DNA of 64,000 nt from Blastocatellia bacterium. Its GTDB lineage: Bacteria; Acidobacteriota; Blastocatellia; RBC074. Shown piece by piece: positions 34,878 through 63,054 of the stretch. Both the position numbers and the translations under genes were made by a program. How positions within the stretch are numbered: position 1 is the first letter of the stretch; every line of letters begins with the position of its first letter. The notes below the pieces were generated by a model. The model did not search any database. It was not told where the DNA came from and saw nothing but the letters and a program-made list of their open reading frames with translations. The stretch covers positions 9,823-73,822 of the forward strand of contig JBJXFI010000413.1 of NCBI GenBank assembly GCA_046154695.1, in the 5' to 3' direction.

Positions 34878-35897
34878 ATGCTGCGGAGATTCGGATTCTT
34901 TTCAATCCCGGGATTGGGACTGGCTCTATTGTTTGCGTCTTCGATCGCGGTGTTCGCGCAGGAGCCCGCCGCCGCGCCCCCGATGCGCGTTCCGGGGGGG
35001 ACGAATGACCGGAGCTATCGACTCGGTCCGGGCGATGTCATCGACGTTCGCGTCTTTGGCCGGCCCGAGATGACCAGCCAGGCGCGCATAGACAGTTTCG
35101 GGCGCGTCCGCCTGCCCTTCACCGACGAAATGCAGGCCGCGTGCCTGACCGAGGCCCAACTCGCCGATATCATCACGGAAAAATACAAGAAGTATCTGCG
35201 AACTCCCCAGGTCGATGTGATGATCAAGGAGTATCGCAGCCAGCCGGTCGCCGTTATCGGCGCGGTCACGCAGCCCGGGCGGTTTCAATTGCAGCGGCGC
35301 GTTCGCCTGCTGGAGCTGCTAACGCAGGCGGGCGGGCCGACGATTCACGCGGGCGCCACCGTCAACATTATTCACAGCACGGATCACGACTATTGCCCCA
35401 CGGACGAGGAAGCGAAGGCCGCCGCCGCGCCGCCGCCGCTCCAGGATGGCGATTCGCCGATCCCGCTCCTGTCGATGATCAAGCTCAAGCAGGTGCTGAC
35501 CGGAGAGGCCAGCGCCAATCCCTACGTCAAACCCGGCGACATCATCAGCATTCCCGAGGCCGATCAGTTCTTCGTCACCGGATCGGTCGTCAAACCGGGC
35601 GCGTATCCGATGGTCGCGAAGATCACGCTGACCCAGGCCGTCGCGCTCGCCGGGGGAATCAATGGCGAGGGAGCGCGGAACCGCGTTCGCCTCGTGCGGC
35701 AGGAACCCGGCAAAGAGACCAAGACGGAGACGATCTACAACCTCGACGAAATTCACCGGCGCAAGATCCAGGACATCGTCCTGCAGGTCAACGATATCGT
35801 CGAGGTGCCCGGATCGACGATCCGCGTCGCGGCGCGGAACCTGCTGGGCGTGAGCATCAACATGCTCAGCGCCCTGCCGTTTTTCATTATTCCCTAG
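34878..35897 (+). CDS. wza: polysaccharide export outer-membrane protein (Wza/OPX family; Poly_export + SLBB)
   Basis: signal peptide, PGDVIDVRVFG Poly_export motif, SLBB repeats; aaggag RBS. Confidence 0.85.
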   Translation: MLRRFGFFSIPGLGLALLFASSIAVFAQEPAAAPPMRVPGGTNDRSYRLGPGDVIDVRVFGRPEMTSQARIDSFGRVRLPFTDEMQAACLTEAQLADIITEKYKKYLRTPQVDVMIKEYRSQPVAVIGAVTQPGRFQLQRRVRLLELLTQAGGPTIHAGATVNIIHSTDHDYCPTDEEAKAAAAPPPLQDGDSPIPLLSMIKLKQVLTGEASANPYVKPGDIISIPEADQFFVTGSVVKPGAYPMVAKITLTQAVALAGGINGEGARNRVRLVRQEPGKETKTETIYNLDEIHRRKIQDIVLQVNDIVEVPGSTIRVAARNLLGVSINMLSALPFFIIP

Positions 35898-35960
35898 ATC
35901 TGTTCTCAATCACCCGGCAACCGATCGACACTGGTCCCGGAACACAAAGCGTACCCGAAG

Positions 35961-38303: not shown

Positions 38304-38562
38304 CGGACGACGGAATCGATTCATTGCGCTCGAACCGGCGGGGCGGTTGATTCCGCCCCCGTCCGCGGGAGTTTGCCCGGCATTTCAACACCGCACCCAC
38401 TCAATTCACAGAAGCCTCGCGTCTGATTCCCGCCCGATGGGGCGATATCGTGAATCGACAGGGAGGATTGCGCGCGGATGCGGCCGGCGGCGATAACTCG
38501 ATAGCTGCCTCGACACGAGGTTTCCTTCACGGTCATCTGGACGGGAGAGGTCCGCCCGAACG

Positions 38563-38645
38563 CGGGATAGCGGAACAGACGGAAATAACGGAACAAACGA
38601 AACAAGACCAGGAAGAGACCGTTTATTCCGTGCTCTCTTCTTTCG
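38563..38645. repeat. S-family repeat, truncated copy
   Basis: GGGATAGCGGAACAGACGGAAATAACGGAACAAACGAAACAAGACCAGGAAGAGACCGTTTATTCCGTGCTCTCTTC. Confidence 0.7.
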
Positions 38646-38661
38646 TTAACTTAACGTCATT

Positions 38662-38686
38662 GGCCTGAAGGCGGGACTCCGAACGG
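38662..38686. repeat. R-family half element (3' arm only) just upstream of wzm start
   Basis: GGCCTGAAGGCGGGACTCCGAACGG. Confidence 0.6.
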
Positions 38687-38702
38687 GAGCGCCATCACCG
38701 AA

Positions 38703-39563
<861 letters not shown>

Positions 39564-39596
39564 ACGGGTAATAAAGCACGGGCTGATTTCGAAATT

Positions 39597-40871
39597 GTGA
39601 CAATACCTTTTGCAATCCGGGTCGAGGATGTTTCCAAGCGCTATCATCTGGGCGCGCGGGCGCGGGTCGATCGAACGCTCCGCGATGTGATCACGGATTC
39701 GATGAGCCGGCTGCGGCCGTTTTCGCGGTCGCGCCGCGCCGCGGGGAGCGGGGACGCCGATCTGTGGGCCCTCGACCGGGTGGGATTCGAGATCAAACCC
39801 GGGGAAGTGGTCGGCATCGTCGGGCGCAACGGCGCGGGAAAGAGCACGCTCCTCAAAATCCTTTCGCGGATCACGCAGCCCACAAGCGGCCGCGTGGAGA
39901 TTTACGGGCGCATCGGCAGCCTGCTGGAGGTCGGCACCGGATTTCACCCCGAATTGAGCGGTCGCGAGAACATCTATCTCAACGGCTCGATTCTCGGGAT
40001 GGCGCGCCGCGAGATCGAAGCGAAGTTCGACGAGATCGTCGCCTTCGCCGAGATCGAGCGCTTCATCGACACGCCGGTGAAGCGGTACAGCAGCGGAATG
40101 TACGTTCGCCTGGCGTTCGCGGTCGCCGCGCATCTGGAGCCGGAGATCCTGCTGGTCGATGAGGTGCTCGCCGTGGGCGACGCGGCGTTTCAGAAGAAGT
40201 GCCTGGGCAAGATGAGCGATGTCGCCCGGCATGGGCGCACGGTGCTGTTCGTCAGCCACAACACCGCGGCGATGCTCAATCTGTGCGATCGGGGCATTTT
40301 GCTGGAGGGAGGCAGGCAGGTGGATGACGACGCGATCGAGCCCGTGATCCAGAAATATCTGAAGGGGCTGCGCACCGCCACGCCCTGGGATTTAAAGAGC
40401 CACGCCGACCGCCAGGGGCGCGGGCGGGTCCGGTTCACCGGCGTCCGGTTCGAGGACGGCGCGGGCAACGCGATCGAGCAGGGCGTTTCGGGAAGGCCGC
40501 TGGTCGTGGTTCTGGATTACGAATCGGAAGGGCGCGCGTCGCTGCCGAACTGCCGCGCCTCGGTCACATTCTTCGATGGGCTCGGCCAGCCGCTGTTCAA
40601 TTGCTCCAGCGAACTGGTGATTCAGGATCCGGTCGATCTTCCGCCGAAAGGAACGCTGCGGTGCGTGGTTCCACGGCTTCCGCTGAGTCAGAGCCAGTAT
40701 CTGGTCACCCTGTTTCTCGAAGTCAATCGGGAGATCGAGGACTGGATCATGAACGCGATCGAGATCGACGTGATCGACGGCGACTATTACGGCACGAGCC
40801 GGCTCTATCCGGAGGGATGGCGGGGCAAGGGCGTTCTCGTTCCGCATCAATGGATCATGAATGGTGGATGA
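39597..40871 (+). CDS. wzt: ABC polysaccharide exporter ATP-binding protein (Wzt/KpsT family) with C-terminal carbohydrate-binding domain
   Basis: GRNGAGKSTLL Walker A, YSSGMYVRLAFA signature, LLVDEVLAVGD Walker B; about 170-aa C-terminal extension; GTG start. Confidence 0.88.
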   Translation: MTIPFAIRVEDVSKRYHLGARARVDRTLRDVITDSMSRLRPFSRSRRAAGSGDADLWALDRVGFEIKPGEVVGIVGRNGAGKSTLLKILSRITQPTSGRVEIYGRIGSLLEVGTGFHPELSGRENIYLNGSILGMARREIEAKFDEIVAFAEIERFIDTPVKRYSSGMYVRLAFAVAAHLEPEILLVDEVLAVGDAAFQKKCLGKMSDVARHGRTVLFVSHNTAAMLNLCDRGILLEGGRQVDDDAIEPVIQKYLKGLRTATPWDLKSHADRQGRGRVRFTGVRFEDGAGNAIEQGVSGRPLVVVLDYESEGRASLPNCRASVTFFDGLGQPLFNCSSELVIQDPVDLPPKGTLRCVVPRLPLSQSQYLVTLFLEVNREIEDWIMNAIEIDVIDGDYYGTSRLYPEGWRGKGVLVPHQWIMNGG

Positions 40872-41778
40872 GTTGGGGCATCGAAACCCGGCGTTTCCGC
40901 CTCCGCCGGAGGGGATGACGGATTGGCCGTGGGCGATGAGCGCGGGAGCGGGGCCGGATGTGCCTGCCGCGCCGCCCCGGATCAGCGTCGTGATCCCCTC
41001 GTTCAATCAGGCGGCGTTCATCGAGAAGACCCTGCGTTCGGTGCTGCTGCAGCGATATCCGAGGCTGGAATGCATCGTGATCGATGGCGGCAGCACGGAT
41101 GGCAGCGTCGAGGTGATTCGCAAATACGCGCCGTGGCTGAGTTATTGGAGCAGCGAGCCCGATCGCGGGCAGAGCCATGCGATCAACAAGGGATTCGCCC
41201 GATCGACGGGAGACGTCCTTTGCTGGCTGAACAGTGACGATTATTACATGCCCCACACGCTCGGAATCGTGGGGGAGAGGCTCGCGGACGGAACGGGCGT
41301 CTTCGCTCTCGCCGGCCACTGCCTCAAGATCTATCCCGACGGCCGCCCGCCCACGCTGCTCGAAGGCCGGTATGAGGACCGCCGCCGCCTGCTGGAATTC
41401 TGGAAAGGCTATCAGATGCATCAGCCCGCCGTCTTCTGGCGCAGAGAGGTGTTCGAGAAGGTCGGCGAGCTCGATGAATCGCTCCATCTGATCATGGATT
41501 TCGATTATTGGGCGCGAATCGCGCGCTTATATCCGTTCGCCAACGTCGATGAGGTTCTGGCCTGCGCCCATTATCACGACGCGGCGAAGACCGGCGACGA
41601 GTACGCCGGATATCATCGAGACCTCGGCGCCCATGCGCCGCGCTACTGGGGGTCGCGGGGAGCGTGGGAGTTCTGGGCGCTCTGGCTTGGCCGGTGGAAC
41701 CATTTTTCGCTGCGGCCCTTCCGTCAGGCGCTGCGCGGCCGGCTGGCCCGTCTCGTTCGAGGGGGCGGCGATGTCTGA
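40861..41778 (+). CDS. glycosyltransferase family 2
   Basis: ISVVIPSFNQ...IVIDGGSTDG...DSDD; true start possibly ATG at 40915 or 40936; overlaps wzt stop. Confidence 0.8.
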   Translation: MVDELGHRNPAFPPPPEGMTDWPWAMSAGAGPDVPAAPPRISVVIPSFNQAAFIEKTLRSVLLQRYPRLECIVIDGGSTDGSVEVIRKYAPWLSYWSSEPDRGQSHAINKGFARSTGDVLCWLNSDDYYMPHTLGIVGERLADGTGVFALAGHCLKIYPDGRPPTLLEGRYEDRRRLLEFWKGYQMHQPAVFWRREVFEKVGELDESLHLIMDFDYWARIARLYPFANVDEVLACAHYHDAAKTGDEYAGYHRDLGAHAPRYWGSRGAWEFWALWLGRWNHFSLRPFRQALRGRLARLVRGGGDV

Positions 41779-42661
41779 GCTTCGCGGCGAGAGAAGCGTC
41801 TCGGTCGTCGTTCCGGTCTATAACGGCGCGGGGACGATCGCGCGCACGATCGAGTGCCTTCTGCGGCAAACGCAGCCGCCGCGCGAGATCGTGATCGTCG
41901 ATGACGGCTCGACCGACGGGACACACGAAGCCCTCGCCGGGTTTCACGGACGAGTCCGGTCGCTTCGCAAGAAGAATGGCGGCCCCGCATCGGCGCGAAA
42001 TGCCGGCGTGCAAGCGGCGGAAGGCGCGTTCATCGCCTTCACCGACAGCGACTGCCTGCCGGAGCCGGATTGGCTGCGCAATCTGCTGGCCGGCTTCGAC
42101 CGGGACGATCTGGCCGGGGTGGGCGGAATTGTCCGGAGCGTCGACGGCACGCTCACGGGGCAGTATGTCGACGCGATCCGGCTGCTCGATCCGCGGCCCG
42201 ACGAGACGGGAGAGATTCCTTATCTGATCACGGCCAATGCATGTTTTCGACGGGAGGCGCTTTTGCGCGCGGGCCTGTTCGACGAGCGATTTCGCAAGCC
42301 GGGCGGGGAGGAGCCGGAACTCTGCTCGCGGATTCGAAAGCTGGGATATCGCTTCGCCGCGGCCGAATCGGCCGTGGTGCTGCACCGCCACCGGCAGACG
42401 GCGCGAAGCCTGCTTCGCACCATTTCGAATTATGGAGAAGGGCGCTATCTCATCGGTCAGTTGTGTCCGGAGCATCGCATCGACCGGCCGCGCCGCGTCT
42501 TCTGGCGGCGGGTGGTCGCGCTGCGCTCGATCTTCACCCGGGTTTTTTCGTACGCCGAACATTACGGTTTGCCGAAGGCCGTCTATTTCTCGGTGCTCGA
42601 CTACCTGCGGCAGGTGGCGATGATCCACGGATATTTGAGGGCGAGCCGTCGTGTCGTCTGA
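41771..42661 (+). CDS. glycosyltransferase family 2
   Basis: VSVVVPVYNG...IVIVDDGSTDGT...FTDSDC; start at internal ATG overlapping upstream stop by 8 nt. Confidence 0.8.
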   Translation: MSELRGERSVSVVVPVYNGAGTIARTIECLLRQTQPPREIVIVDDGSTDGTHEALAGFHGRVRSLRKKNGGPASARNAGVQAAEGAFIAFTDSDCLPEPDWLRNLLAGFDRDDLAGVGGIVRSVDGTLTGQYVDAIRLLDPRPDETGEIPYLITANACFRREALLRAGLFDERFRKPGGEEPELCSRIRKLGYRFAAAESAVVLHRHRQTARSLLRTISNYGEGRYLIGQLCPEHRIDRPRRVFWRRVVALRSIFTRVFSYAEHYGLPKAVYFSVLDYLRQVAMIHGYLRASRRVV

Positions 42662-43550
42662 GGTCAGCGTCATCATTCCCGCATATAACGCCGAGGGGTA
42701 TCTGGCCGAGACGATCGAGAGCGCGCTGGCGCAGACCCGTCCGCCTTTCGAGATCATCGTGGTGGACGACGGATCGGAGGATCGCACGCTGGAAGTCGCG
42801 CGGCGGTATGCCCCGCGGGTTCGCGCGATCCGCAAACCAAACGGCGGACCGGCGTCGGCGCGGAACGAGGCGATGCGAAACGCTTCGGGCGAATACCTCG
42901 CCTTTCTCGACAGCGACGATCTGTGGGTGCCCGACAAGCTGGAAGAGCAGGTTGCCTTTCTGGACCGGCACGGGGACGTCGGCCTGGTGTACGGGCAGGC
43001 GTTGATGTTCACACAGCATGGCGCGGAACGCGCCTTCGGCCGGCGGATCGGATTCACCGAGGACCCGTCGTTCCGGCTGCTGCTGTACGGGGACTTCATT
43101 CCGAACTCGACGGTCATGATCCGCCGAAGCTGCGCCGAGGCCGTGGGCCCGCTCAACGAGCGGCGGGAGCTGATCGCCGTCGAGGATTACGAATACTGGA
43201 TGCGCATCGCACGGCGATTCCCCATTGCGGGCATCTCGCGTCCGCTGGCCTGGTATCGAATTCGCGAGGGGAATCTGATGGGCGACGGCTCGGACATCGA
43301 CAAGAGCGTGCGGCTGTCGATCGAGGCCCTGCGCGAGATCGAGCGGCTGCACCCCGAAATTTGGGGCGAATTGGGAGTGGATCGCGAGATGCTCTTCGCC
43401 CGGCTGCACGTCCGCGCGGGCTTTGCCTGGAAGCGGCGGCGCGCCTGGCGGCAGGTTCGCCGGGAATTCCGCGAGGCGCTGCGCTGGCGAATGCATCCGC
43501 GGGTGCTGCGATGGATCGTGGCGGCGATGATTTTGAAAGAGTGGTCATAG
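42651..43550 (+). CDS. glycosyltransferase family 2
   Basis: VSVIIPAYNAE...IIVVDDGSEDRT...LDSDD; GTG start overlapping upstream gene. Confidence 0.8.
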   Translation: MSSEVSVIIPAYNAEGYLAETIESALAQTRPPFEIIVVDDGSEDRTLEVARRYAPRVRAIRKPNGGPASARNEAMRNASGEYLAFLDSDDLWVPDKLEEQVAFLDRHGDVGLVYGQALMFTQHGAERAFGRRIGFTEDPSFRLLLYGDFIPNSTVMIRRSCAEAVGPLNERRELIAVEDYEYWMRIARRFPIAGISRPLAWYRIREGNLMGDGSDIDKSVRLSIEALREIERLHPEIWGELGVDREMLFARLHVRAGFAWKRRRAWRQVRREFREALRWRMHPRVLRWIVAAMILKEWS

Positions 43551-43566
43551 GGATGATTGATGGGAC

Positions 43567-43623
43567 CTATGGGACTTATAGGACCCATAAGTCCTATGAG
43601 TCCCATGAGTCCCATAAAAAATG
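43567..43623. other. about 25-bp-stem hairpin built from ATGGGAC heptamer repeats
   Basis: GATGGGACCTATGGGACTTATAGGAC / GTCCTATGAGTCCCATGAGTCCCAT; followed by A-run, so not a classical + strand terminator. Confidence 0.55.
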
Positions 43624-44718: not shown

Positions 44719-44747
44719 GTTCCGCCTGAAGACGGAACTCCAAACGG
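44677..44747. repeat. REP-like R-family copy R4, overlapping 3' end of GT4 gene and abutting next ATG
   Basis: TTCGGAGTTCCGCCTTCAGGCGG ... CCGCCTGAAGACGGAACTCCAAACGG. Confidence 0.85.
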
Positions 44748-44749
44748 TC

Positions 44750-47560: not shown

Positions 47561-47632
47561 GTTCGGGGTTCCGCCTTCAGGCGGAATTGTCGCAATGAAA
47601 AATCGACCGCCTGAAGGCGGAACTCCGAACGG
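47561..47632. repeat. REP-like R-family copy R5 at the 5' end of the hypothetical secreted-protein gene
   Basis: GTTCGGGGTTCCGCCTTCAGGCGG ... CCGCCTGAAGGCGGAACTCCGAACGG; ATG 47595 lies in the loop. Confidence 0.85.
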
Positions 47633-47651
47633 TTTCCGCTGGCTGCTGGGC

Positions 47652-52002: not shown

Positions 52003-52027
52003 ACGGAAATGGGGGCGCCCCATTTCC
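52003..52027 (+). terminator. short perfect hairpin after wzy
   Basis: CGGAAATGGGGG-CG-CCCCATTTCCG. Confidence 0.45.
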
Positions 52028-52075
52028 GGATATGACTGCCTTGCGCGACGGCCCTTCACATCCCCTGATGCTCGT

Positions 52076-53299: not shown

Positions 53300-53310
53300 T
53301 AAATGGTAGG

Positions 53311-53383
53311 CAACCACGGGGAGCACGGGGAACACGGGGAAATAGAGGTTCTTTCCCCGTGTTCCCCGTGCTTCCCGTGGTTG
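53311..53383 (+). terminator. 32-bp-stem hairpin built from CACGGGGA octamer repeats, followed by ATTTTCT
   Basis: CAACCACGGGGAGCACGGGGAACACGGGGAAA / TTTCCCCGTGTTCCCCGTGCTTCCCGTGGTTG (1 G-U). Confidence 0.65.
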
Positions 53384-53398
53384 ATTTTCTGACTATTC

Positions 53399-54334
53399 AT
53401 GCCGGCCCCAAAAGAATCCGAGAAGTTTCCCCTTTCCGTCATCATTCCCGTCAAAAACGAAGAGCGAAATCTGGCCGCGTGCCTGGAGAGCGTCGCGTGG
53501 GCGGACGACATCTGGGTCGTCGATTCGGGCAGCACGGATGGGACGGCGGGGATCGCCGAGGCGCATCGCGCCCGGGTCGCGCAGTTCGATTATTCGGGCG
53601 GGTTTCCCAAGAAGAAGAACTGGGCGCTCGCGAATCTGCCGCTCCGGCATGAATGGGTGCTGCTGATCGATGCGGACGAGCGCGTCACGCCCGAGCTGGC
53701 GGGCGAAATCCGCGACCGGCTGGGCGGCGGAGAGGCTGCCGACGGCTATTATCTCAATCGAAAACTGATCTTTCTGGGGCGATGGATCCGGCATTGCGGC
53801 TGGTATCCGAGCTGGAATCTGCGGCTGTTCAAGCACAGGCTGGGCCGGTACGAGAAGCTGGAGGCCGGGGACGTCGAGAACGCCGGCGACGTCGAGGTTC
53901 ACGAACACGTCGTTTTGCAGGGGCGCGGCGAGTATCTCGGGAACGATCTGCTGCACGAGGATTTCAAGAGCATCTATCATTTCATCGAGCGTCATAACCG
54001 CTACTCGAACTGGGACGCGCGGGTCTATCACAATCTGGCCTCGGGCGTCGCGTTCGGCAGCGCGATCGGCGCCTCTCCCTTCGGTTCGCCGCTCGAACGG
54101 AAGCGGTTTCTCAAGCGGATGTGGGCGCGATTCCCGTTTCGCCCGCTGTTTCGCTTCGTCTGGATGTACATCGTCAAACGGGGCTTTCTGGACGGTCGCG
54201 CCGGATTGATCTTCTGCACGCTGATGACCATGCATGAGGCCGTCATCTCGGCGAAGATGTATGAAGAGAGGCTGAAGATCGCGCAGGGAGCGGATGCGGC
54301 GACAAACGACATTTCTCACTCGAAGAATCCGTAA
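53399..54334 (+). CDS. glycosyltransferase family 2
   Basis: LSVIIPVKNEE...VVDSGSTDGT...IDADE. Confidence 0.8.
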   Translation: MPAPKESEKFPLSVIIPVKNEERNLAACLESVAWADDIWVVDSGSTDGTAGIAEAHRARVAQFDYSGGFPKKKNWALANLPLRHEWVLLIDADERVTPELAGEIRDRLGGGEAADGYYLNRKLIFLGRWIRHCGWYPSWNLRLFKHRLGRYEKLEAGDVENAGDVEVHEHVVLQGRGEYLGNDLLHEDFKSIYHFIERHNRYSNWDARVYHNLASGVAFGSAIGASPFGSPLERKRFLKRMWARFPFRPLFRFVWMYIVKRGFLDGRAGLIFCTLMTMHEAVISAKMYEERLKIAQGADAATNDISHSKNP

Positions 54335-54336
54335 TC

Positions 54337-56298
54337 ATGTGTGGAATCTGCGGGATCGTCGGCGCGGTTGAGCGAGAGACGATCGAGCGAATGACGGCGA
54401 GTCTGGCGCACCGGGGGCCGGATGGCGGCGGGACGGAGTCGTTTCCCGCGCATGGGCTGTCGCTCGGGCATCGGCGGCTGAGCATCATCGACCTTTCGCC
54501 GCGCGGCCGGCAGCCGATGGCGAATGAGGACGAGAGCCTCTGGATCAGCTTCAACGGCGAGATCTATAACTTCCGGGAGCTGCGTCGCTCGCTCGATCCG
54601 GCGCGGCATCGCTTTCGATCTGAGACCGACACCGAGGTCATCCTTCATCTGTTCGAGGAGCGCGGGGTCGAGGCGTTCCGTCGATTGAACGGGATGTTCG
54701 CGTTTGCGCTGTACGATTCGGTTGGCGGGCGGCTTCATCTGGTTCGGGATCATCTCGGCGTGAAGCCGCTTTATTACGCGGACGTGGGCGGGCGGTTGAT
54801 CTTCGGTTCGGAGATCAAGGCGATTCTGGCCTCGGAGGCGTATTCGCCGGAGATCGACCGGCAGTCGATGCGCGACTTCTTCTCGTTTCTTTACGTTCCC
54901 GCGCCGCGAACGATCTTTCGGGACATTCATCAATTGCCGCCGGCGCACTGGCTGGAATATGACCTGGCGCGGCGGCGAATCGTTCGCGTGGAGCGATATT
55001 GGGGCCCGAAGGATTGGGCCGCGCCGCCCGTCGAGGCGGGGGATCGCCGGCGGGCGCTGCGCGAACTGTTCACCGACGCGGTCGGCAGGCAGATGATCAG
55101 CGATGTTCCGCTGGGCGCGTTTCTCTCTGGCGGGGTGGACTCGAACGTGATCGTGGGATTGATGGCGGAGCGGGCTTCGCGGCCGGTCAAGACCTTCACG
55201 GTTCTCTTCGATGAGCCGGGGATGGACTATTACGATGAGCGCCGCGAGGCGAGGCGCGTCTCCGACCGGTTTTCGACCGAGCATCACGAGCTGCCGATCG
55301 ACCTGTCGCGCCCCGAGGAGATGCTCGACCTGGTCGAATCGTTCGATCAGCCGTTCGGCAACACGACCTTCTTTCTCACCTGGCTGCTCTCGCGATACAC
55401 GCGCGAGTCGGTCACGGTGGCCCTGTCGGGGGCGGGGGGCGATGAGCTCTTTGGCGGGTATCCGCGCTACCGCGCGGTTCGCCGGATGCGGGCCCTGCGG
55501 CTGCTGCCGCGGCCCCTGGCGCGCGCGACCCTCCGGGGCCTGTCGCGGCTGCGGGACGATTTCGCCGACCGGCGCCTGCATCGCCTGCGCGCCCTGCTGG
55601 CGGGGCTCGACCGCGATCCGGCCCGGCAGTACCTGAAATGGGTCTATTACCTCGACGAAGACCGCAAGGCCAGGCTTCTGCGCGACGGCGGCGGGCTTCC
55701 CGCGCATCGCATACTCCAATCGCATCTCGATGAGATTCCCGGGGCTTCGGCCGATCCATGGGATGACGGCAACCGGTTTTCTTTTCTCGATACCGAGACG
55801 TTTCTTCCCGACAACCTGCTCGAATATTCCGACAAGATGAGCATGGCCTGGGGGCTGGAGCTTCGCGTTCCGTTCCTCGATCCGCGGATGGTCGAGTTCG
55901 CCTTCCGCACGCCGTTCGCGGAGAAACTCAATCGCCGCGGCAGCAAGATGATTCTGCGCGAGGCCTTCGCCGATCTGATCCCCCCGGAGAATCTTCGCGT
56001 GCCGAAGAAGGGGTTCAATGTCCCGCTCGGCGCGTGGATGCGGACGAAACTCGACCGCTATTTCGACGAACTGCTCCCGCGGGAGTATGTCGAGCGCGAG
56101 GGGCTCTTCCATCACGCTTACATCACTCACCTGCGCGAAGAGCACCGGAACGGAAAGCGCGACAACGCGTACGAACTCTTCTCGATTCTGATCTTCGACG
56201 CGTGGTATCGGAAATACATCACCCGCACCCTGCCCCGAAAGATGGAATCGGCGAACGGATTTTTTGATCGTAATCACGAACATTCAACACCGACGTAG
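54337..56298 (+). CDS. asparagine synthetase-family glutamine amidotransferase (AsnB-like); in this context probably a sugar-carboxyl amidotransferase
   Basis: N-terminal MCGICG Ntn-hydrolase nucleophile, SGGVDS PP-loop motif, 653 aa. Confidence 0.88.
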   Translation: MCGICGIVGAVERETIERMTASLAHRGPDGGGTESFPAHGLSLGHRRLSIIDLSPRGRQPMANEDESLWISFNGEIYNFRELRRSLDPARHRFRSETDTEVILHLFEERGVEAFRRLNGMFAFALYDSVGGRLHLVRDHLGVKPLYYADVGGRLIFGSEIKAILASEAYSPEIDRQSMRDFFSFLYVPAPRTIFRDIHQLPPAHWLEYDLARRRIVRVERYWGPKDWAAPPVEAGDRRRALRELFTDAVGRQMISDVPLGAFLSGGVDSNVIVGLMAERASRPVKTFTVLFDEPGMDYYDERREARRVSDRFSTEHHELPIDLSRPEEMLDLVESFDQPFGNTTFFLTWLLSRYTRESVTVALSGAGGDELFGGYPRYRAVRRMRALRLLPRPLARATLRGLSRLRDDFADRRLHRLRALLAGLDRDPARQYLKWVYYLDEDRKARLLRDGGGLPAHRILQSHLDEIPGASADPWDDGNRFSFLDTETFLPDNLLEYSDKMSMAWGLELRVPFLDPRMVEFAFRTPFAEKLNRRGSKMILREAFADLIPPENLRVPKKGFNVPLGAWMRTKLDRYFDELLPREYVEREGLFHHAYITHLREEHRNGKRDNAYELFSILIFDAWYRKYITRTLPRKMESANGFFDRNHEHSTPT

Positions 56299-56322
56299 GG
56301 GCAGGCCCCCGTGCCTGCCCCG
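56299..56322 (+). terminator. short GC hairpin after asnB-like gene
   Basis: GGGGCAGGC-ccccgt-GCCTGCCCC. Confidence 0.4.
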
Positions 56323-56340
56323 GTTGTCGGTGGGGCTCTT

Positions 56341-58482
56341 ATGAAGCAAGTGACACAGAACGTTCGCACGGGCGTGCTGAAGGTGGACGAGGTGCCGGAG
56401 ACGATCTGCAAGCGCGGCGGGGTGCTCGTGGACAATGCCACGTCGCTGATCAGCGCGGGGACCGAGAAGATGGCGGTCGATTTCGCGCGGAAGTCGCTGG
56501 CGGGAAAGGCGCGGGAGCGGCCGGATCTGGTTCGCCAGGTGCTGCTGAAACTGAAGCGGGACGGGTTGACGAACACGATCAACACCGTGCGAGCGCGGCT
56601 GGAGTCGCCGTTGGCGCTTGGATACAGTTGCGCGGGTGTCGTGCGGGAGATCGGCGCGGGGGCGGAGGAGTTCCGCGTCGGGGATCGCGTGGCGTGCGCC
56701 GGGATGAATTACGCCTCGCATGCCGAGACGGTCTTCGTTCCGAAGAATCTGGCGGTGCGGATTCCGGAGGGCGTGAGCTTCGACGAGGGGGCCTTCGTCA
56801 CGCTGGGAGCGATCGCGCTGCAGGGCGTGCGAACGGCGGAGGTCAGGCTGGGCGATGCGGCGGCGGTGATCGGGCTGGGGCTGCTCGGCCAGTTGACGGC
56901 GCAGATTCTGAAGGCGGCCGGATGCCGCGTCATCGGAATCGACCTCGAGCAATCGAAGATCGACCTTGCCCGCGAGTTCGGCGCCGATGAGGCCGTGCTC
57001 CGCGGCGATGACGTCGAGCGGCGCATCGCGGCATTCACCGATGGGCACGGGGTCGATGCCATCATCGTCGCCGCGGCGGCCGACACCAATGATCCGATCG
57101 AGCTTGCGGGCGTCATCGCCCGCGATCGCGCGATCGTCTCGATGGTCGGCGCGGTGCGAATGGAGATCCCGCGAAAGATCTATTACGAAAAGGAGCTGCA
57201 GCTTCGCCTCTCGCGCTCGTACGGGCCGGGCCGGTACGATGCGATCTACGAAGAGCAGGGCGTCGATTACCCGATCGGGTATGTGCGCTGGACCGAGCGT
57301 AGAAATATGCAGGAGTTTCTGCGCCTGGTCGCGGCGCGCGCGGTGCGGCTCGCTCCGCTGATCACGCATCGCTTTCCGATCGAGGAAGCCGGGACGGCCT
57401 ACGAGATCATCACCGGCAAGCGGCGCGAGCCTTATATGGCCGTTTTGCTGCAATACGCCGCCGAGGCGCCCGGCTCGAAGGTCGTGGCGCTAAGCGCGCG
57501 CGCCGCGTCCGGAGAGATCCGGCTGGGCGTGATCGGCGCGGGAAATTTCGCGAAGAGCGTGCTGCTGCCCCGGCTCGCGAAATCGCGCGAGGTCCGGCTC
57601 GCCGGCATCGCGACCGCGACCGGAAGAAATGCCCGGGCCATCGGCGAGCAGTATGGATTCGGCTTCTGCACGACCGATTATCGGGAACTGCTCTCGCGCG
57701 AAGAGGTCAATACCATCCTCATCGCCACGCGCCACGACACGCACGCCCGTATGACGGCCGAGAGCCTGCGCGCGGGCAAGAACGTCTTCGTGGAGAAGCC
57801 GCTTGCCATCGACCAGGAAGGGTTGGAGGAGGTTCGGGCCGCCGTGAATGCCGCCGGAGAAACGGCGCCGCGCCTGATGGTCGGTTTCAACCGGCGGTTC
57901 TCGCCCCTCTCCAACGAGCTGAAGTCCTTTTTCGCCGGCGCCGGTCCGCTGGCCGTCACCTACCGCGTCAACGCCGGCGAGATCCCGAAAGAGAGCTGGG
58001 TTCATGCCGAGGAGGGCGGCGGGCGCATCGTCGGTGAAGTCTGCCACTTCGTCGATTACCTGCAATTCCTGACCGGGTCCGATCCTGTGGAGGTCTTCGC
58101 CCTCGCCGGCGCCTCGGGCGTCGATACGCTGAGCATTGTCCTCAAATTCAGCGACGGCTCGATCGGCGGCATCAACTACTTCGCGACCGGAGATCGAGGC
58201 TTTCCGAAAGAACGGGTTGAAGTTTACGGCGGCGGACGCGCCGCCGTTCTCGACGATTTTCGCTCGCTCGAAACGTGGCGCGACGGAAAACGGGCCGTCA
58301 CCCGCCGCGGTTCGCAGGAGAAGGGCTTCGATCAGGAGCTTGCCGCCTTCCTCACGGCGATCCGCTCCGGCCGGGAGATGCCCATCTCCTGGCAGAGCCT
58401 GTTTCTGACGACGGTGACGACGCTACGGATCGAGGAATCGCTGAGAAATGGTTGCCGGTTGCCGGTCGCCGGGTGTCAGTAA
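56341..58482 (+). CDS. bi-domain oxidoreductase (N-terminal zinc-type alcohol dehydrogenase/MDR domain fused to C-terminal Gfo/Idh/MocA NAD-binding oxidoreductase)
   Basis: MDR-like N-half (GxGxxG VIGLGLLG); C-half RLGVIGAGNFAKSVLLPRL Rossmann + Gfo/Idh/MocA C-domain; ATG 56341 (track GTG 56311 lies in the hairpin). Confidence 0.8.
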   Translation: MKQVTQNVRTGVLKVDEVPETICKRGGVLVDNATSLISAGTEKMAVDFARKSLAGKARERPDLVRQVLLKLKRDGLTNTINTVRARLESPLALGYSCAGVVREIGAGAEEFRVGDRVACAGMNYASHAETVFVPKNLAVRIPEGVSFDEGAFVTLGAIALQGVRTAEVRLGDAAAVIGLGLLGQLTAQILKAAGCRVIGIDLEQSKIDLAREFGADEAVLRGDDVERRIAAFTDGHGVDAIIVAAAADTNDPIELAGVIARDRAIVSMVGAVRMEIPRKIYYEKELQLRLSRSYGPGRYDAIYEEQGVDYPIGYVRWTERRNMQEFLRLVAARAVRLAPLITHRFPIEEAGTAYEIITGKRREPYMAVLLQYAAEAPGSKVVALSARAASGEIRLGVIGAGNFAKSVLLPRLAKSREVRLAGIATATGRNARAIGEQYGFGFCTTDYRELLSREEVNTILIATRHDTHARMTAESLRAGKNVFVEKPLAIDQEGLEEVRAAVNAAGETAPRLMVGFNRRFSPLSNELKSFFAGAGPLAVTYRVNAGEIPKESWVHAEEGGGRIVGEVCHFVDYLQFLTGSDPVEVFALAGASGVDTLSIVLKFSDGSIGGINYFATGDRGFPKERVEVYGGGRAAVLDDFRSLETWRDGKRAVTRRGSQEKGFDQELAAFLTAIRSGREMPISWQSLFLTTVTTLRIEESLRNGCRLPVAGCQ

Positions 58483-58512
58483 CCGGCAACCGGCGACCGG
58501 CTACCGCCAACC
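58446..58512 (+). terminator. hairpin of GGTTGCC heptamer repeats spanning the stop codon of the oxidoreductase
   Basis: GGTTGCCGGTTGCCGGTCGCCGG (coding) / CCGGCAACCGGCGACCGGC (post-stop). Confidence 0.5.
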
Positions 58513-58515
58513 GGA

Positions 58516-60279
58516 ATGCTGCTGCGATTACTCCGCACGATCAAGCCGCTCCGATGGGAGCAGATTGTCTACCGGCCGTTGCGCGTGGCGCAGTATCGGG
58601 CGTATCGGTATTTTCCATCGCTTGCCGGGGAGGCGCGTGAGGAGGCCGAGCTTTCGAGATCGCGAATCGATCTTTTTCGTAATGTGATTCACGAATCGTT
58701 CGCGCATCTGATGCCGCCGATGGAAGAGGTCGAGCCGGTGTTGGCGGACGTGCTGGCGAATCGCTTTACGTTCCTCAATCAGCCGCTCGAACTGGCCGAA
58801 GTCGATTGGAATCGCCGATACGAGAGCCATCTCTGGAATTATCAGCTTCACTATTTCAATTTCACGATGCCGTGCGCGCGGGCGGGTGGAAAACCCTGGC
58901 GCCGCTGCCGCGCGCGGATCGAGAGCTGGATCGAGACGGCGCGTCCGGGGCAAAGCGATGGATGGGACGCGTATCCGATCTCGCTGCGCGTTGTGAACTG
59001 GCTGTATGCGTTCGCGCTCGTCGAGGCCGCGGAGACGGATCGCGCGTTTCTCGATCGCTGGCGGGGGAGCATGCACCGCCAGCTTGCGTTTCTGCGCCGT
59101 CACCTGGAGTTTCATCTGCTGGCCAACCATCTGTTGAAGAATGTGAAGGCCCTGGTCGTGGGCGGGCTCGCCTTCGAGGAGCGCGAGTGGCTGGAGACCG
59201 GCGAGCGCCTGTTGTGGCGCGAGTTCGATGAACAGGTCCTCGCGGACGGCGGGCATTACGAACGAGCGCCGATGTATCACGCGCAGACGCTGGCCGATTT
59301 TCTCGAATGCGCCGCGCTGTTGCGCGCCTGTGGGCGCGTCGTTCCCCCGCGCGTCGAGGAAGGGCTGCCTCGCATGGCTTCGTTTCTTTCGGCAATGACG
59401 CACACGGACGGCTCGCTGGCGCTCTTCAATGACTCCGCAAACACGGCTGAAACGAGGCCCCGGCCCATTCTCGAAGCAGCCCGCCGAATCTGTGGCGCCT
59501 TCGAACCGGCAACCGAATTCCCACAAACCGGCTATTACGTCTGGGCTTCGCGGACCGAAGCGGAGAAGATCATTATCGATGCCGGGCCGCCGTCGATCGG
59601 CTATAACACCGCCCACGCGCATTGCGACCTGCTCAGCTACGAGATGTGGCTGGACGGGCGCCCGTTCATCGTGGATTCCGGGCTGCACGGCTATGGCGGC
59701 GATCCCTTTCGGGAATATTGCCGGTCGACGAGGGCGCACAACACGGTGCTCTTCGACGGCGTGGAACAGTCCGAGGTCTGGGGCACGTTTCGCATGGCGC
59801 GCCAGGCCCGACTGCTCGACGCGGATTGGCGCGCCGGCGACGACACCCTCGCATTTCGCGGCGCCTATCGCCGTCATGACGGCGCGGTCATTCACGAGCG
59901 CCGCATTCATCGCGCCGCCGACGGAGCATGGACCGTATTCGATCTCGCCCGCGAGGGCGCGGTGCGCGACGCCGTCAACTTCGTGCATCTGCATCCCTCG
60001 GTTTCCGCCCGAAAGATTAATGCGCGTCTCATCGAATGTCGGATTCGCTCGCGCATTGTATTTATCGAGCCGTTCGCGGATGATGGTATTGAAATCGACA
60101 TTGAATTAATCGCGGGAGGTCAGTCGCCGGTTCAGGGCTGGCACTGTCCGGAGTTTGGCGTGGCGCATCCCAGTCCGACCATCTGTCTTCACTTTGGAGT
60201 CGCGGAGGGAAAGGGATTCGGATACCGGCTCGTCTTTCGGGACGCGGATGCTGCGGAGCGCCCGATACCCCCAGAGTAA
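58516..60279 (+). CDS. heparinase II/III-like (alginate-lyase-fold) family protein
   Basis: Hepar_II_III-like segments (ISLRVVNWLYA; GYNTAHAHCDLLSYEMWLDGRPFIVDSGLHGYGG; HNTVLFDG). Confidence 0.8.
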   Translation: MLLRLLRTIKPLRWEQIVYRPLRVAQYRAYRYFPSLAGEAREEAELSRSRIDLFRNVIHESFAHLMPPMEEVEPVLADVLANRFTFLNQPLELAEVDWNRRYESHLWNYQLHYFNFTMPCARAGGKPWRRCRARIESWIETARPGQSDGWDAYPISLRVVNWLYAFALVEAAETDRAFLDRWRGSMHRQLAFLRRHLEFHLLANHLLKNVKALVVGGLAFEEREWLETGERLLWREFDEQVLADGGHYERAPMYHAQTLADFLECAALLRACGRVVPPRVEEGLPRMASFLSAMTHTDGSLALFNDSANTAETRPRPILEAARRICGAFEPATEFPQTGYYVWASRTEAEKIIIDAGPPSIGYNTAHAHCDLLSYEMWLDGRPFIVDSGLHGYGGDPFREYCRSTRAHNTVLFDGVEQSEVWGTFRMARQARLLDADWRAGDDTLAFRGAYRRHDGAVIHERRIHRAADGAWTVFDLAREGAVRDAVNFVHLHPSVSARKINARLIECRIRSRIVFIEPFADDGIEIDIELIAGGQSPVQGWHCPEFGVAHPSPTICLHFGVAEGKGFGYRLVFRDADAAERPIPPE

Positions 60280-61574
60280 TGATGCGAATAACATTTCTCT
60301 GCCAATATTTTCCACCGGAGATGGGCGCGCCGTCGGCGCGCACGTTCGAGCATGCCCGCCATTGGGCCCGGCTCGGGCATGAAGTCACGGTGATCACGGG
60401 ATTTCCGAATCACCCGACGGGCGTCATTCGCCCCGAGTATCGCGGGGAGATCGTCAAGCGGGAACGGGTCGGGAAGATCGATTTGCTGCGAACATGGGTC
60501 TATGTCACCGCCAATCGGGGATTCGTCAAGCGGATTTTGAATTTTCTTTCGTTCTTTGCCTCGTCGATTCTCTTCGGCGCGGTGATGACCCGGCGCCCCG
60601 ATGTCGTGGTGGGGACCTCGCCGCAGTTTTTCTGCGCGGTCGGGGCCTATGTGCTGAGCGTGCTGAAGCGCGCGCCGTTCGTCTTTGAGGTGCGCGATAT
60701 CTGGCCGCGGTCGGCCGTCGAACTGGAGGTGCTGCGGAACCCCTTCCTGATTCGCGCCCTCGAACGGATCGAGTTGTTTCTATACAACCGCGCCGCGCTT
60801 ATCGTTCCGGTGGCGGAATCGACGCGGGACTATCTGATCGCCCGGGGGATTCCCGCCGAGAAGATCCGCATCGTTCCCAACGGAATCGACGCGGAGTATC
60901 TGGAATCCGCGACCGTGACGGCCGGCGAGGTCCGCGCGCAATACGGATTGGAAGGGAAGTTTCTGATCTCGTACATCGGCACCCATGGCATCTCGCACGC
61001 GCTGGATATCGTCCTGGAGGCGGCGAAGCGATTGGCGGCGGCGCCCGACATCCATTTTCTGTTTGTCGGGGAGGGCGCGGAGAAGGAGAGCCTCAAACGG
61101 CTGGCGGCCGAGTCCCGGCTGGAGAACGTCACCTTCATCGATCAGCAGCCGCGGGAGCGGCTGCTCGGGTTTTATCGCGCGAGCGATGTCAGTCTGGTCC
61201 CGCTCAAGCGCCTGCCGATTTTCAGAAAGGTTCTTCCCTCAAAGCTCTTCGAGTTGATGGGCGCGGGGTGTCCGATCATCTGCGGCGTCGAGGGAGAGGC
61301 CGCGCGGCTCGTCGGCCGGGCCGAGTCGGGGCTCTGCATCGAGCCGGAGAATCCGGCGGAAATGGTCGAGGCGATTCTTCGATTGCGCGCGGATGGCGGT
61401 TTGCGCGGACAGTTGAGCGAGAACGGCCGCGCCTTCGTTCGAAAGAACTACCTGCGGTCCGCGCTGGCCGAGCGGTATCTGGAATCGCTCGGGACGATCC
61501 TTTCCGGCCGGCTCGCGATTCGCGGCGCCAATTCGCCGACCGCCGAGCATCGTCCGCCGGTGACCGACAACTAA
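60279..61574 (+). CDS. glycosyltransferase family 4, WcaI/WbuB-like
   Basis: N-terminus MMRITFLCQYFPPEMGAPSARTFEHARHWARLGHEVTVITGFPNHPTG typical of WbuB/WcaI-type GT4. Confidence 0.85.
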   Translation: MMRITFLCQYFPPEMGAPSARTFEHARHWARLGHEVTVITGFPNHPTGVIRPEYRGEIVKRERVGKIDLLRTWVYVTANRGFVKRILNFLSFFASSILFGAVMTRRPDVVVGTSPQFFCAVGAYVLSVLKRAPFVFEVRDIWPRSAVELEVLRNPFLIRALERIELFLYNRAALIVPVAESTRDYLIARGIPAEKIRIVPNGIDAEYLESATVTAGEVRAQYGLEGKFLISYIGTHGISHALDIVLEAAKRLAAAPDIHFLFVGEGAEKESLKRLAAESRLENVTFIDQQPRERLLGFYRASDVSLVPLKRLPIFRKVLPSKLFELMGAGCPIICGVEGEAARLVGRAESGLCIEPENPAEMVEAILRLRADGGLRGQLSENGRAFVRKNYLRSALAERYLESLGTILSGRLAIRGANSPTAEHRPPVTDN

Positions 61575-61581
61575 TGCAGTC

Positions 61582-63054
61582 ATGCTTACCTATGTCACCC
61601 TCTTCATTTTGTCGTCGTTCGCGGCCCTGCTGATCACGCCCTTCGTGCGGCGGAAGGCGATTGCGTGGGGAGCGGTCGCGATGCCGGATCAGGGCCGCCA
61701 CATTCATGCGACGCCGACGCCGCGCCTGGGCGGGGTCGCCATCTATGCTGCCTTTCTGGCGGCGCTGCTCTGTGTGCCTCTGTTCGGCAACATGGTCGGC
61801 GACATCTTCCGCGCCAATCTTCCCAAATTGCTCGCCCTGATCGGCCCGGCGACGCTCATCTTTCTTTTCGGCGTGTATGACGATTTCCGCAGCGCCTCGG
61901 CGCCGCTCAAGATCACCGTGCAGACGGCGGCGGCGAGCATTGTCTATGCCTGCGGGTATGGGATCGGCAATCTTTCCTCGCCCTTCGGCGGAGAGTGGCA
62001 TCTTCCGGCATGGCTCGGCTTCCTGTTGACCGTTCTCTGGATCGTCGGCATCACCAATGCGTTTAATCTGATCGATGGCGTCGATGGGCTGGCCGCGGGA
62101 GCCTCGGTCTTCGCGCTGCTCTCCATTCTGATCTTCTCCGTCGCGCAGGAGAATCCCGAAATCAGCCAGATCGCCGTCGTTCTGGTCGGCGCGGTCATCG
62201 GATTTCTGCGCTATAACTTCAATCCGGCGACGATCTTTCTGGGCGATTCGGGCAGCCTCTTCCTGGGATTTATGGCGGCGGTACTGTCGCTGGTCGGATC
62301 TCAGAAAGGATCGACGATCGTGGCGATCGCGATTCCGCTGGTCTCTTTCGGGCTGCCGGTGATCGAGGCGGGATTGTCGATTTTGCGGCGGTTTCTCAGC
62401 GGGCAGCCGCTGCTGGCGGGGGATCGGGGCCACATTCATCACCGGCTGCTCGAACGCGGATTGTCGCAGCGGCAGGTGGCGATTCTGCTTTACGGCGTAT
62501 GCGGGCTCTTCTCGCTCTTCGGATTGATGCTGTTGAATCCGGCGCGCAATCTCGCGGCCCTGATCTTCTTCGTTCTCGGTGTGGGGATCCTCTTCGGCGT
62601 GCAGCATCTGCGGTATGCCGAATTCAGCGAACTGGGAAGCCAGATCAAACAGGGCGTCAACCGCCGCCGCCGCTCGCTGGCGGTCAATGTCCGCGTTCGG
62701 CGGACGAGCGATGATCTCGGCAATGCAAAATCACTCGATCAGCTCTTCACCCTGCTCGATGAGCTGCTCTCAACCAACGAATTCGATTACGTCGAACTCG
62801 AGGTCGATGATCTGGTCTGGGACTGGGGGGCCCGCCCATTCGACTCCAGCGGCCGGGAGCAGTTCTGGGCGCTCCGCGTCCCGCTCACCGCGGAAGATGG
62901 CCGCGCGGTCGGCGCCATCAGCTTTCACCGCGCGATCTCCAGCGAGATTCCCGCGATCGATATCGCCCATCTCTGCGGCAGCCTCCAGCGCGAATTGAGC
63001 GCCGCCCTCGTCCGCCTCCTCGATGAAGAGAAGGTGGCCGGCCCCCGCGCCTGA
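61582..63054 (+). CDS. polyprenyl-phosphate N-acetylhexosamine-1-phosphate transferase (WecA/MraY superfamily priming GT) with about 150-aa extra C-terminal cytoplasmic domain
   Basis: 11 TM; VYDDFR and NAFNLIDGVDGLAAG MraY/WecA catalytic motifs; soluble C-terminal tail after residue about 340. Confidence 0.85.
   Translation: MLTYVTLFILSSFAALLITPFVRRKAIAWGAVAMPDQGRHIHATPTPRLGGVAIYAAFLAALLCVPLFGNMVGDIFRANLPKLLALIGPATLIFLFGVYDDFRSASAPLKITVQTAAASIVYACGYGIGNLSSPFGGEWHLPAWLGFLLTVLWIVGITNAFNLIDGVDGLAAGASVFALLSILIFSVAQENPEISQIAVVLVGAVIGFLRYNFNPATIFLGDSGSLFLGFMAAVLSLVGSQKGSTIVAIAIPLVSFGLPVIEAGLSILRRFLSGQPLLAGDRGHIHHRLLERGLSQRQVAILLYGVCGLFSLFGLMLLNPARNLAALIFFVLGVGILFGVQHLRYAEFSELGSQIKQGVNRRRRSLAVNVRVRRTSDDLGNAKSLDQLFTLLDELLSTNEFDYVELEVDDLVWDWGARPFDSSGREQFWALRVPLTAEDGRAVGAISFHRAISSEIPAIDIAHLCGSLQRELSAALVRLLDEEKVAGPRA

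Follow-up and report, generated by a model that had tools for sequence, protein, structure and literature searches.

Results

A surface-polysaccharide locus with two sets of export genes

A 64-kb stretch of contig JBJXFI010000413.1 (hereafter the window), from a metagenome-assembled genome of an uncultured, soil-type Acidobacterium of the Blastocatellia, carries a gene cluster of about 32 kb for surface polysaccharide. The window has a G+C content of 60-67%, and coding frames were recognised by a third-position G+C above 0.72. Between positions 34878 and 63054 lie 21 genes, all on the plus strand. Pfam and NCBIfam hidden Markov models (HMMs) identify among their products an outer-membrane polysaccharide export protein (OPX, Wza), a class 2a polysaccharide co-polymerase (PCP-2a, Wzc), the permease Wzm and ATPase Wzt of an ATP-binding cassette (ABC) exporter, eleven glycosyltransferases (GTs), a Wzy_C protein and a WecA-type primer (Table 1). 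The initial annotation of this DNA had described a co-directional string mixing Wza/Wzc with Wzm/Wzt, and all of these parts are HMM-supported, in place and on the plus strand. Its count of eleven GTs and a priming transferase also agrees with Pfam, which gives seven GT2 and four GT4/group 1 enzymes and a polyprenyl-phosphate N-acetylhexosamine (HexNAc)-1-phosphate transferase (PNPT) of WecA type. At the level of domains the description is correct, and the locus is a variant of known export systems rather than a new kind of system.

The extent given to the locus, 34878-63054, was drawn too narrowly. Two minus-strand genes lie beyond its left edge, divergent from wza; they encode a second Wzy_C protein and a tetratricopeptide-repeat (TPR) protein with a putative carbohydrate-binding module (CBM), and we count both as members of the locus because of their synteny in relatives. 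Also overlooked, within the string itself, was a periplasmic protein resembling glycoside hydrolases (GHs) that belongs to no described family.

The wza and wzc genes are separated by 63 nt. In the 19 genes from wzm to wecA every gap is at most 121 nt or the genes overlap, as several do, and this packing suggests two units, wza-wzc and wzm-to-wecA. The spacer between them matches no Rfam family and shows no convincing terminator, and promoter, terminator and Rfam scans of the locus spacers gave nothing usable.

Conservation of the locus in relatives

Thirteen orthologous loci, the window counted, were compared across genomes and metagenomes, using the GH-like protein and Wzt as markers. Ten share the order wzt-GT2a-GT2b-GT2c-GT4a-GT2d-GT2e-GT2f-GH-like-GT4b-Wzy_C-GT4c-GT2g-AsnB-oxidoreductase-heparinase-like: the window, L103/L081 (a complete 6.3-Mb Acidobacteriota genome, CP065005.1), L088, L089, L093, L095, L099, L104, L105 and L106. 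The wzm gene stands directly 5' of wzt in six of the ten (window, L103/L081, L093, L099, L104, L106) and would lie beyond the contig end in L089; it was not detected in L088, L095 or L105, where an AsnB-like gene abuts wzt. L001 retains a reduced set, namely wzt and GT2a, and wzm was not detected there. L083 and L087 are without exactly wzm, wzt and GT2a-c, the rest being orthologous (49-78% identity) and in the same order. GT4a, GT2d, GT2e and GT2f are kept in all orthologous loci, and an orthologue of the internal Wzy_C protein occurs in every core locus. The five genes wzm-wzt-GT2a-GT2b-GT2c thus form a separable cassette, GT2a-c coming and going with wzm/wzt.

In the loci whose upstream region can be read (window, L104, L103 and L001), wza-wzc head the string. 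The interval that follows wzc, up to the ABC transporter genes, differs from locus to locus: it holds no gene in the window, a gene for a 1,305-residue CarboxypepD_reg and outer-membrane beta-barrel protein (TonB-receptor-like; positions 5037-8954) in L104, the closest relative, and a second AsnB-like gene in L103 (7264-9144) and L001. By DNA alignment the 399-nt spacer of the window is homologous to the flanks of the 3.9-kb barrel gene of L104, its first 263 nt aligning, so that, as read from the alignment, the two loci differ by an indel at a variable site. The barrel protein might act with the export system as its partner in the outer membrane. The second AsnB-like amidotransferase, 30-36% identical to the window AsnB, stands directly 5' of wzm/wzt in most acidobacterial relatives (L103, L081, L088, L093, L095, L099, L105, L106, L001, L003, L011 and L066); the window has none.

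The TPR/CBM gene lies 5' of wza in L083 and L104, and in the acidobacterial locus L003 homologues of the upstream Wzy_C and TPR genes sit between wzc and wzm. Beyond wecA the 3' genes of the window and of L086 are unrelated. The mixed string is therefore no one-off adjacency, since relatives with visible upstream sequence share the arrangement wza-wzc-(variable gene)-wzm-wzt-GTs. The initial annotation had called the combination atypical, which holds against enterobacterial paradigms but not within the lineage itself, where it is common.

Taken together, domain content, operon-like packing, conservation and modularity define a lineage-conserved Blastocatellia surface-polysaccharide super-locus of three modules. 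We take the first to be the wza-wzc pair, with the divergent TPR/CBM and Wzy_C genes alongside in some relatives. The second would be the cassette, which has the content and order of a minimal ABC-dependent O-antigen cluster, and the third a 14-gene core of eight single-domain GTs, the GH-like protein, the internal Wzy_C protein, the amidotransferase, the oxidoreductase, the heparinase-like protein and the WecA-type primer.

The transporter cassette

The best NCBIfam match of Wzm is the galactan Wzm/RfbD model, above KpsM, both being sub-threshold. In Wzt, the Wzt_C domain (PF14524) spans residues 270-396 with 51 bits against a cut-off of 30.4, and residues 55-388 align with full-length Aquifex aeolicus Wzt (7K2T/8DKU; E = 2e-69). 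This identifies the C-terminal domain as a genuine Wzt carbohydrate-binding domain, and the Wzt-type extension proposed by the initial annotation, which a missing Wzt_C fold would have contradicted, stands. The nearest solved structures to the window Wzm/Wzt are A. aeolicus WzmWzt and the TarGH/TagGH exporters. The reading frames of GT2a, GT2b and GT2c overlap one another. The order wzm-wzt-GTs is that of the Klebsiella O2a and E. coli O9a rfb clusters. By Pfam, no protein of the locus has a methyltransferase, kinase or GT99 domain that would mark a chain terminator; one of the GT2 proteins could conceivably act as the capping enzyme.

The Wza/Wzc export pair

The OPX has Poly_export and SLBB domains; a Wza_C domain was not detected in it, and an outer-membrane-spanning C-terminal helix is what we infer from its hydrophobic 27-residue tail alone. 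Its partner is a PCP-2a protein with a cytoplasmic bacterial tyrosine (BY) kinase domain and a tyrosine cluster. It scores 196 bits against TIGR01007 (cut-off 108) and has a Walker A' motif (VLIIDADLR, at residue 607), a Walker B motif (YVVIDSPP) and nine tyrosines within its last 28 residues. A Wzb-type tyrosine phosphatase was not found, no LMWPc or PHP match occurring among the locus genes and the scanned window open reading frames (ORFs), which comprise all but a few upstream ones at 9572-17235.

No flippase in the window

Pfam models of the multidrug/oligosaccharidyl-lipid/polysaccharide (MOP) flippases, Wzx included (PF01943, PF13440, PF14667), match nothing in the locus, and the 64 kb offer no candidate. 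More than five transmembrane (TM) segments are predicted in Wzm, the two Wzy_C proteins and WecA only. Because no other ORF exceeds five, and because the remaining window genes checked with Pfam are housekeeping genes, we conclude that the window holds no Wzx, as the initial annotation had said.

Two Wzy_C proteins

The internal Wzy_C protein carries HX10G and RX10G motifs and is the candidate polymerase of the core. The upstream Wzy_C protein, with weak, sub-threshold NCBIfam matches to IctB and an exosortase-associated O-ligase, could be a ligase, a polymerase or an O-oligosaccharyltransferase, which its sequence does not distinguish. A search of PDB sequences with both proteins returned no match. 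The PF04932 family and its HX10G motif are common to WaaL ligases, PglL/PilO O-oligosaccharyltransferases and inverting Wzy polymerases (PMC4815439, PMC3643930), and for that reason "Wzy" is an ambiguous hallmark. Of the Wzy-like polymerase that the initial annotation had named, the Wzy_C domain is confirmed (66 bits), but the identity as a polymerase is not, since domain and motif are shared with ligases and two such genes are present. This weakens one of the three hallmarks on which a Wzy pathway had been proposed.

The core genes

In make-up the core is a Wzy-type heteropolysaccharide locus, with many single-domain GTs, a Wzy_C protein with HX10G and RX10G, a PCP-2a and an OPX. An NCBIfam scan of the locus GTs gave no equivalog-level match. 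The AsnB-type amidotransferase, the fused oxidoreductase and the heparinase-like protein stand together (54337-60279) as a putative block for sugar modification. The primer has about ten TM segments and a C-terminal cytoplasmic extension, and scores 119 bits against the WecA model, which is sub-threshold.

The GH-like ORF runs for 570 codons from 47526; 47595 is probably the true start, giving a protein of 547 residues. No Pfam or NCBIfam model matches it. The family has more than 1,134 homologues, of which the best 120 are all at least 55% identical and nearly all unnamed. An AlphaFold model built with 30 homologues (pLDDT 89.4, pTM 0.88) folds as a TIM barrel followed by a beta-sandwich, which suggests a glycoside-hydrolase-like protein from a large, uncharacterised family of exopolysaccharide (EPS) loci. 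A distant locus, L097, holds Wzc, Wza, two GH-like copies and a bona fide Wzx (Polysacc_synt_3, 203 bits). The GH-like family thus occurs in flippase-type loci as well, because both copies stand there beside a real Wzx.

Wzc genes beside related transporters in other phyla

A wider sample was drawn from 80 loci in GTDB species representatives that hold the closest relatives of the window Wzt; 52 of them, with 5 kb or more of sequence ahead of wzm/wzt, are informative. Sixteen of the 52 (~30%) carry, within 6 kb upstream, a PCP-2a gene whose match to the window Wzc extends from the periplasmic portion up to and including the kinase; in 15 of the 16 the gene shares the strand of wzm/wzt. These loci span Acidobacteriota, Bacteroidota, Verrucomicrobiota, Planctomycetota, Chloroflexota and Methylomirabilota. 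Fifteen were screened for a Wzx-like ORF, and none was found within about 10 kb of wzt, contig ends permitting; the multi-TM ORFs seen there beyond Wzm are three Wzy_C proteins and one acyltransferase. In L060 a Wzy_C gene lies between wzc and wzm.

Two of the loci, for which the annotation is complete, are clean strings. L027 (Cytophagaceae) has a short OPX, Wzc, Wzm, Wzt and a sulfotransferase followed by glycosyltransferase genes, all tightly packed and co-directional. L072 (Pyrinomonadaceae) reads LuxR-Wza-Wzc-Wzm-Wzt-methyltransferase/GT2-Wzt(CBD)-two methyltransferases-GT-double GT2-GT2, where CBD stands for the carbohydrate-binding domain; its predicted products are those of a classical ABC/O-antigen cluster, candidate methyl-cap enzymes among them, encoded directly behind wza-wzc. 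Its two Wzt paralogues lie at 6931-8391 and 9989-11266, one without a detectable Wzt_C domain and the other with a CBD, and the three methyltransferases sit between and after them.

Discussion

Weighing one glycan against two

The reading we favour, tentatively and at something short of an even chance, is that of a composite locus, in which an optional O-antigen-type ABC cassette is set into an EPS locus of Wzy type, the flippase for which would be encoded elsewhere. It is preferred because the cassette is cleanly present or absent, because its content and order are canonical, because the core is of Wzy type, and because L097 shows the GH-like family beside a true flippase. A shared WecA primer would then most likely initiate two glycans, each on undecaprenyl pyrophosphate (Und-PP)-HexNAc. 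The core glycan would be a complex repeat unit, moved by a MOP flippase encoded outside the locus; in the periplasm the internal Wzy_C protein would polymerise it under the control of Wzc, and after trimming by the GH-like enzyme the polymer would leave the cell through Wza. The cassette glycan would be a simple polymer finished in the cytoplasm, its end recognised by the CBM of Wzt before export by Wzm/Wzt, and it would then be attached by a ligase of the Wzy_C/WaaL type, possibly the upstream copy; of the two Wzy_C paralogues, one is available as polymerase and one as ligase. The assignment of enzymes to glycans, the polymerase and ligase roles and the external flippase are what we infer from gene content and comparison. 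The initial annotation had offered a complex repeat unit or two polymers, and the absence of the cassette from L083 and L087 speaks for two polymers no less than for a fused pathway.

Several observations weigh against a composite locus. No Wzx/Polysacc_synt-type flippase was found in the Pfam-annotated orthologous loci, which jointly cover the region from the TPR gene to a point 10 kb beyond wecA. Most loci have the cassette (10-11 of the 13), and translational overlap joins it to the core genes in what looks like a single operon. No chain-terminating enzyme that the CBM could read was found in the locus, and the upstream Wzy_C gene does not track the cassette (L103 vs L083). L027 and L072, moreover, have wzm-wzt and GTs directly after wza-wzc but no Wzx or Wzy_C gene, and in such strings the PCP-2a/OPX pair may really serve the ABC exporter.

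A rival reading is a single hybrid route, in which the wzm-to-wecA operon would build a single polymer on Und-PP in the cytoplasm, no translocase of the inner membrane other than Wzm/Wzt would take part and the PCP-2a/OPX pair would export the product, Wzc/Wza taking the place of a KpsE/KpsD pair and a Wzy_C-family enzyme ligating or releasing the polymer in the periplasm. Such a function is plausible, although for the window locus we hold it to be rather unlikely. Speaking for it, the locus, complete in other respects, offers no translocase candidate besides Wzm/Wzt, whose genes are operonic with all GTs; wza-wzc precede them in every cassette-bearing relative with visible upstream sequence (L103, L104 and, with wzt only, L001); PCP-2a genes recur beside Wzt relatives across the six phyla, with no Wzx-like ORF in the 15 screened loci; and L027 and L072 are clean strings of just these genes. 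An experimental precedent exists in the capsule/O-antigen region of Vibrio cholerae O31 NRT36S, where wzm/wzt lie in one region with wza-wzb-wzc and where transposon disruption of wzm abolished the capsule; that region also has wzx and a putative wzy, belongs to another phylum and shows no gene-by-gene homology to the window (PMC1847822). Against the hybrid route, L083 and L087 retain the core without wzm/wzt, the 8-11 single-domain GTs are unlike those of known ABC-dependent polymers, and neither a terminator enzyme nor a multi-domain polymerising GT was found in the locus. Current reviews, too, place PCP-2a in Wzy-dependent and PCP-3 in ABC-dependent systems (PMC12220298), and the adjacency of polysaccharide genes does not prove coupling.

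A different way of doing without Wzx would be for Wzm/Wzt to stand in for the flippase itself, moving complete, CBM-checked, Und-PP-linked repeat units that the internal Wzy_C protein would polymerise under Wzc control for secretion by Wza. PglK and Wzk are ABC transporters, of a different type, that flip Und-PP-oligosaccharides. In the window wzx is absent, yet a Wzy_C protein, a PCP-2a and an OPX are present, and in L003 and L060 the Wzy_C genes lie between wzc and wzm. Characterised Wzm/Wzt systems with a CBM, however, all transport polymers that are long and capped; the Wzy_C protein is retained where the cassette is absent, and a pure flippase role would not explain why the transporter and three GT2 genes go missing together. 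We regard this replacement as improbable. Least credible of all, and in our judgement very improbable, is that an XrtA/PEP-CTERM exosortase-type or Kps-type (group 2 capsule) system has been misread. It could point to sub-threshold NCBIfam matches to EpsE, EpsF, EpsG and the XrtA-system amidotransferase and to a weak KpsM match of Wzm, but the scores fall far below the curated cut-offs (108 vs 180 and 512 vs 817 bits for TIGR030xx models, 49 vs 300 bits for KpsM). The defining genes are missing as well: no exosortase was found in the window, nor any KpsC/KpsS (Capsule_synth), PCP-3 (KpsE) or GfcC-domain OPX (KpsD); the PCP has a kinase domain and the primer is of WecA type. Both candidates were rejected on these grounds.

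Beyond this one locus stands the broader proposition that PCP-2a/OPX pairs are the export partners of Wzm/Wzt(CBM) in a widespread hybrid route, spread over six phyla, that dispenses with Wzx and with KpsE/KpsD. We consider this possible, if less than probable. In that route the window Wzm/Wzt would be the sole translocase, passing either the whole polymer or CBM-checked repeat units for Wzy_C polymerisation. Within the lineage, the evidence leans slightly to the modular, two-glycan locus.

Comparison with known export systems

The locus resembles the Wzx/Wzy systems of group 1/4 capsules and EPS (E. coli Wza-Wzb-Wzc and colanic acid; Myxococcus xanthus EPS) in its OPX and full-length PCP-2a autokinase with tyrosine cluster, its many single-domain GTs, its Wzy_C-family protein and its polyprenyl-phosphate primer; the periplasmic glycosidase-like accessory protein recalls PslG of the Psl system. 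Unlike those systems, the window and its orthologues have no Wzx, no Wzb was seen, an ABC-2 exporter lies inside the operon, and the window OPX is short (339 residues) and not a lipoprotein. With ABC-dependent O-antigen systems (E. coli O9a, K. pneumoniae O2a/O12, A. aeolicus WzmWzt) it shares Wzm, a Wzt with Wzt_C, the wzm-wzt-GTs order, a WecA-type primer and Wzy_C/WaaL-like candidates, but it differs from them in having wza-wzc in front and far more GTs, and in lacking a recognisable terminator (methyltransferase, kinase or Kdo transferase) or multi-domain polymerase GT. Group 2/3 capsules (KpsMT-KpsE-KpsD) provide the concept of an ABC exporter coupled to an envelope-spanning PCP and OPX. 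Unlike the window, they have a kinase-less PCP-3, a GfcC-like OPX domain and a lyso-phosphatidylglycerol (lyso-PG)-Kdo linker made by KpsC/KpsS. In the EPS gene sets of cyanobacteria (Synechocystis Wza/Wzc with KpsMT/Wzm-Wzt), Wzy- and ABC-type parts coexist and are suspected to interact, with an OPX shared between pathways; the genes are scattered over the genome, unlike the tight, conserved string of the window (PMC4594306, PMC8205485).

Large surveys of OPX proteins have assigned pathways from the nearest marker gene and did not describe the pairing of PCP-2a with Wzm/Wzt (PMC9601211 among them). In literature searches whose coverage did not extend to subscription journals, the only reports found of such a hybrid are those on V. 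cholerae NRT36S and the cyanobacterial surveys, which is weak evidence of novelty, and nothing was found on wzm in Acidobacteria.

Textbook accounts keep Wzy export (PCP-2a and OPX) apart from ABC export (PCP-3 and OPX, or none for O-antigen). If PCP-2a/OPX pairs do accept polymers delivered by Wzm/Wzt, the assignment of pathways by gene content in soil and aquatic phyla will need revision, and tyrosine-kinase control would extend to ABC-made polymers. If the locus is merely composite, it is an ordinary mosaic polysaccharide locus, still useful as a marker of the diversity of Blastocatellia surface glycans. The recurrent PCP-2a/OPX-Wzm/Wzt string of environmental phyla is the part most worth attention. 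Acidobacteriota abound in soil and their EPS is important for its aggregation, yet their export pathways are unstudied; the locus also marks a large, uncharacterised family of periplasmic GH-like proteins tied to EPS loci.

Table 1. Genes and spacer of the Blastocatellia surface-polysaccharide locus, in window coordinates
Feature	Position	Strand	Basis and remarks
Wzy_C protein no. 1 (upstream), 417 aa, about 9 TM	31106-32359	-	Pfam Wzy_C 80 bits; HX10G at H323
TPR protein, membrane-anchored, C-terminal CBM_4_9-like	33206-34624	-	Pfam TPR families; weak CBM_4_9 match
OPX (Wza-like), 339 aa	34878-35897	+	Poly_export 73 bits and 2 SLBB; signal peptide; short hydrophobic C-terminal tail
Wzc-like PCP-2a/BY tyrosine autokinase, 780 aa	35961-38303	+	Wzz, GNVR, P-loop kinase
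Spacer wzc/wzm	38304-38702	none	399 nt, non-coding; variable insertion point among relatives
Wzm, ABC-2 permease, O-antigen/teichoic-acid type	38703-39563	+	ABC2_membrane PF01061 76 bits
Wzt, ABC ATPase with C-terminal carbohydrate-binding domain	39597-40871	+	ABC_tran PF00005 82 bits; Wzt_C
GT2a	40861-41778	+	Pfam GT2
GT2b	about 41771-42661	+	Pfam GT2
GT2c	42651-43550	+	Pfam GT2
GT4a, GT2d, GT2e (start about 45658), GT2f (start about 46578)	43621-47522	+	Pfam
GH-like secreted/periplasmic protein	47595-49238	+	Signal peptide; TIM barrel and beta-sandwich model
GT4b	49349-50575	+	Pfam Glycos_transf_1 104 bits
Wzy_C protein no. 2 (internal), 460 aa	50572-51954	+	Pfam Wzy_C 66 bits; HX10G at H349, RX10G at R283
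GT4c and GT2g	52076-54334	+	Pfam
AsnB-type glutamine amidotransferase	54337-56298	+	Pfam, NCBIfam; TIGR03108 512 bits, below cut-off 817
Fused zinc-dependent alcohol dehydrogenase (Zn-ADH)/Gfo-Idh-MocA oxidoreductase	56311-58482	+	Pfam, NCBIfam
Heparinase II/III-like protein	58516-60279	+	Pfam, NCBIfam
GT4d	60279-61574	+	Pfam
WecA/MraY-family polyprenyl-phosphate HexNAc-1-phosphate transferase (putative primer)	61582-63054	+	Glycos_transf_4 145 bits

Additional features of the locus and its relatives

Some orthologous loci, the window not among them, have a membrane glycosyltransferase of family GT87 (GT-C fold) right after the internal Wzy_C gene: by Pfam in L083 (14540-15868), L089 (11052-12329) and L091 (6809-8284), and as an equivalent ORF in L092 (5309-6784). 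Its presence hints at periplasmic addition of a side chain from a polyprenyl-phosphate sugar. In L105 a DUF433/DUF5615 pair, toxin-antitoxin-like, is inserted at 16508-17202 between GT2g and AsnB.

Within the window, a stretch of 846 nt (32360-33205) separates the upstream Wzy_C gene from the TPR gene. Its sole ORF, of 127 residues on the minus strand, is without a Pfam match, and a hairpin-like, weak Rfam match at 32417-32485 is at noise level. At the other end, positions 63723-64000 hold two direct-repeat copies of 116 nt, 99% identical and spaced by 162 nt, in an array that reaches the end of the window. Each copy holds a perfect palindrome of 24-27 nt (GGCACAAGCTGTCCAGCTTGTGCC), and the array could be an element like the repetitive extragenic palindromes (REP) or miniature inverted-repeat transposable elements (MITE).

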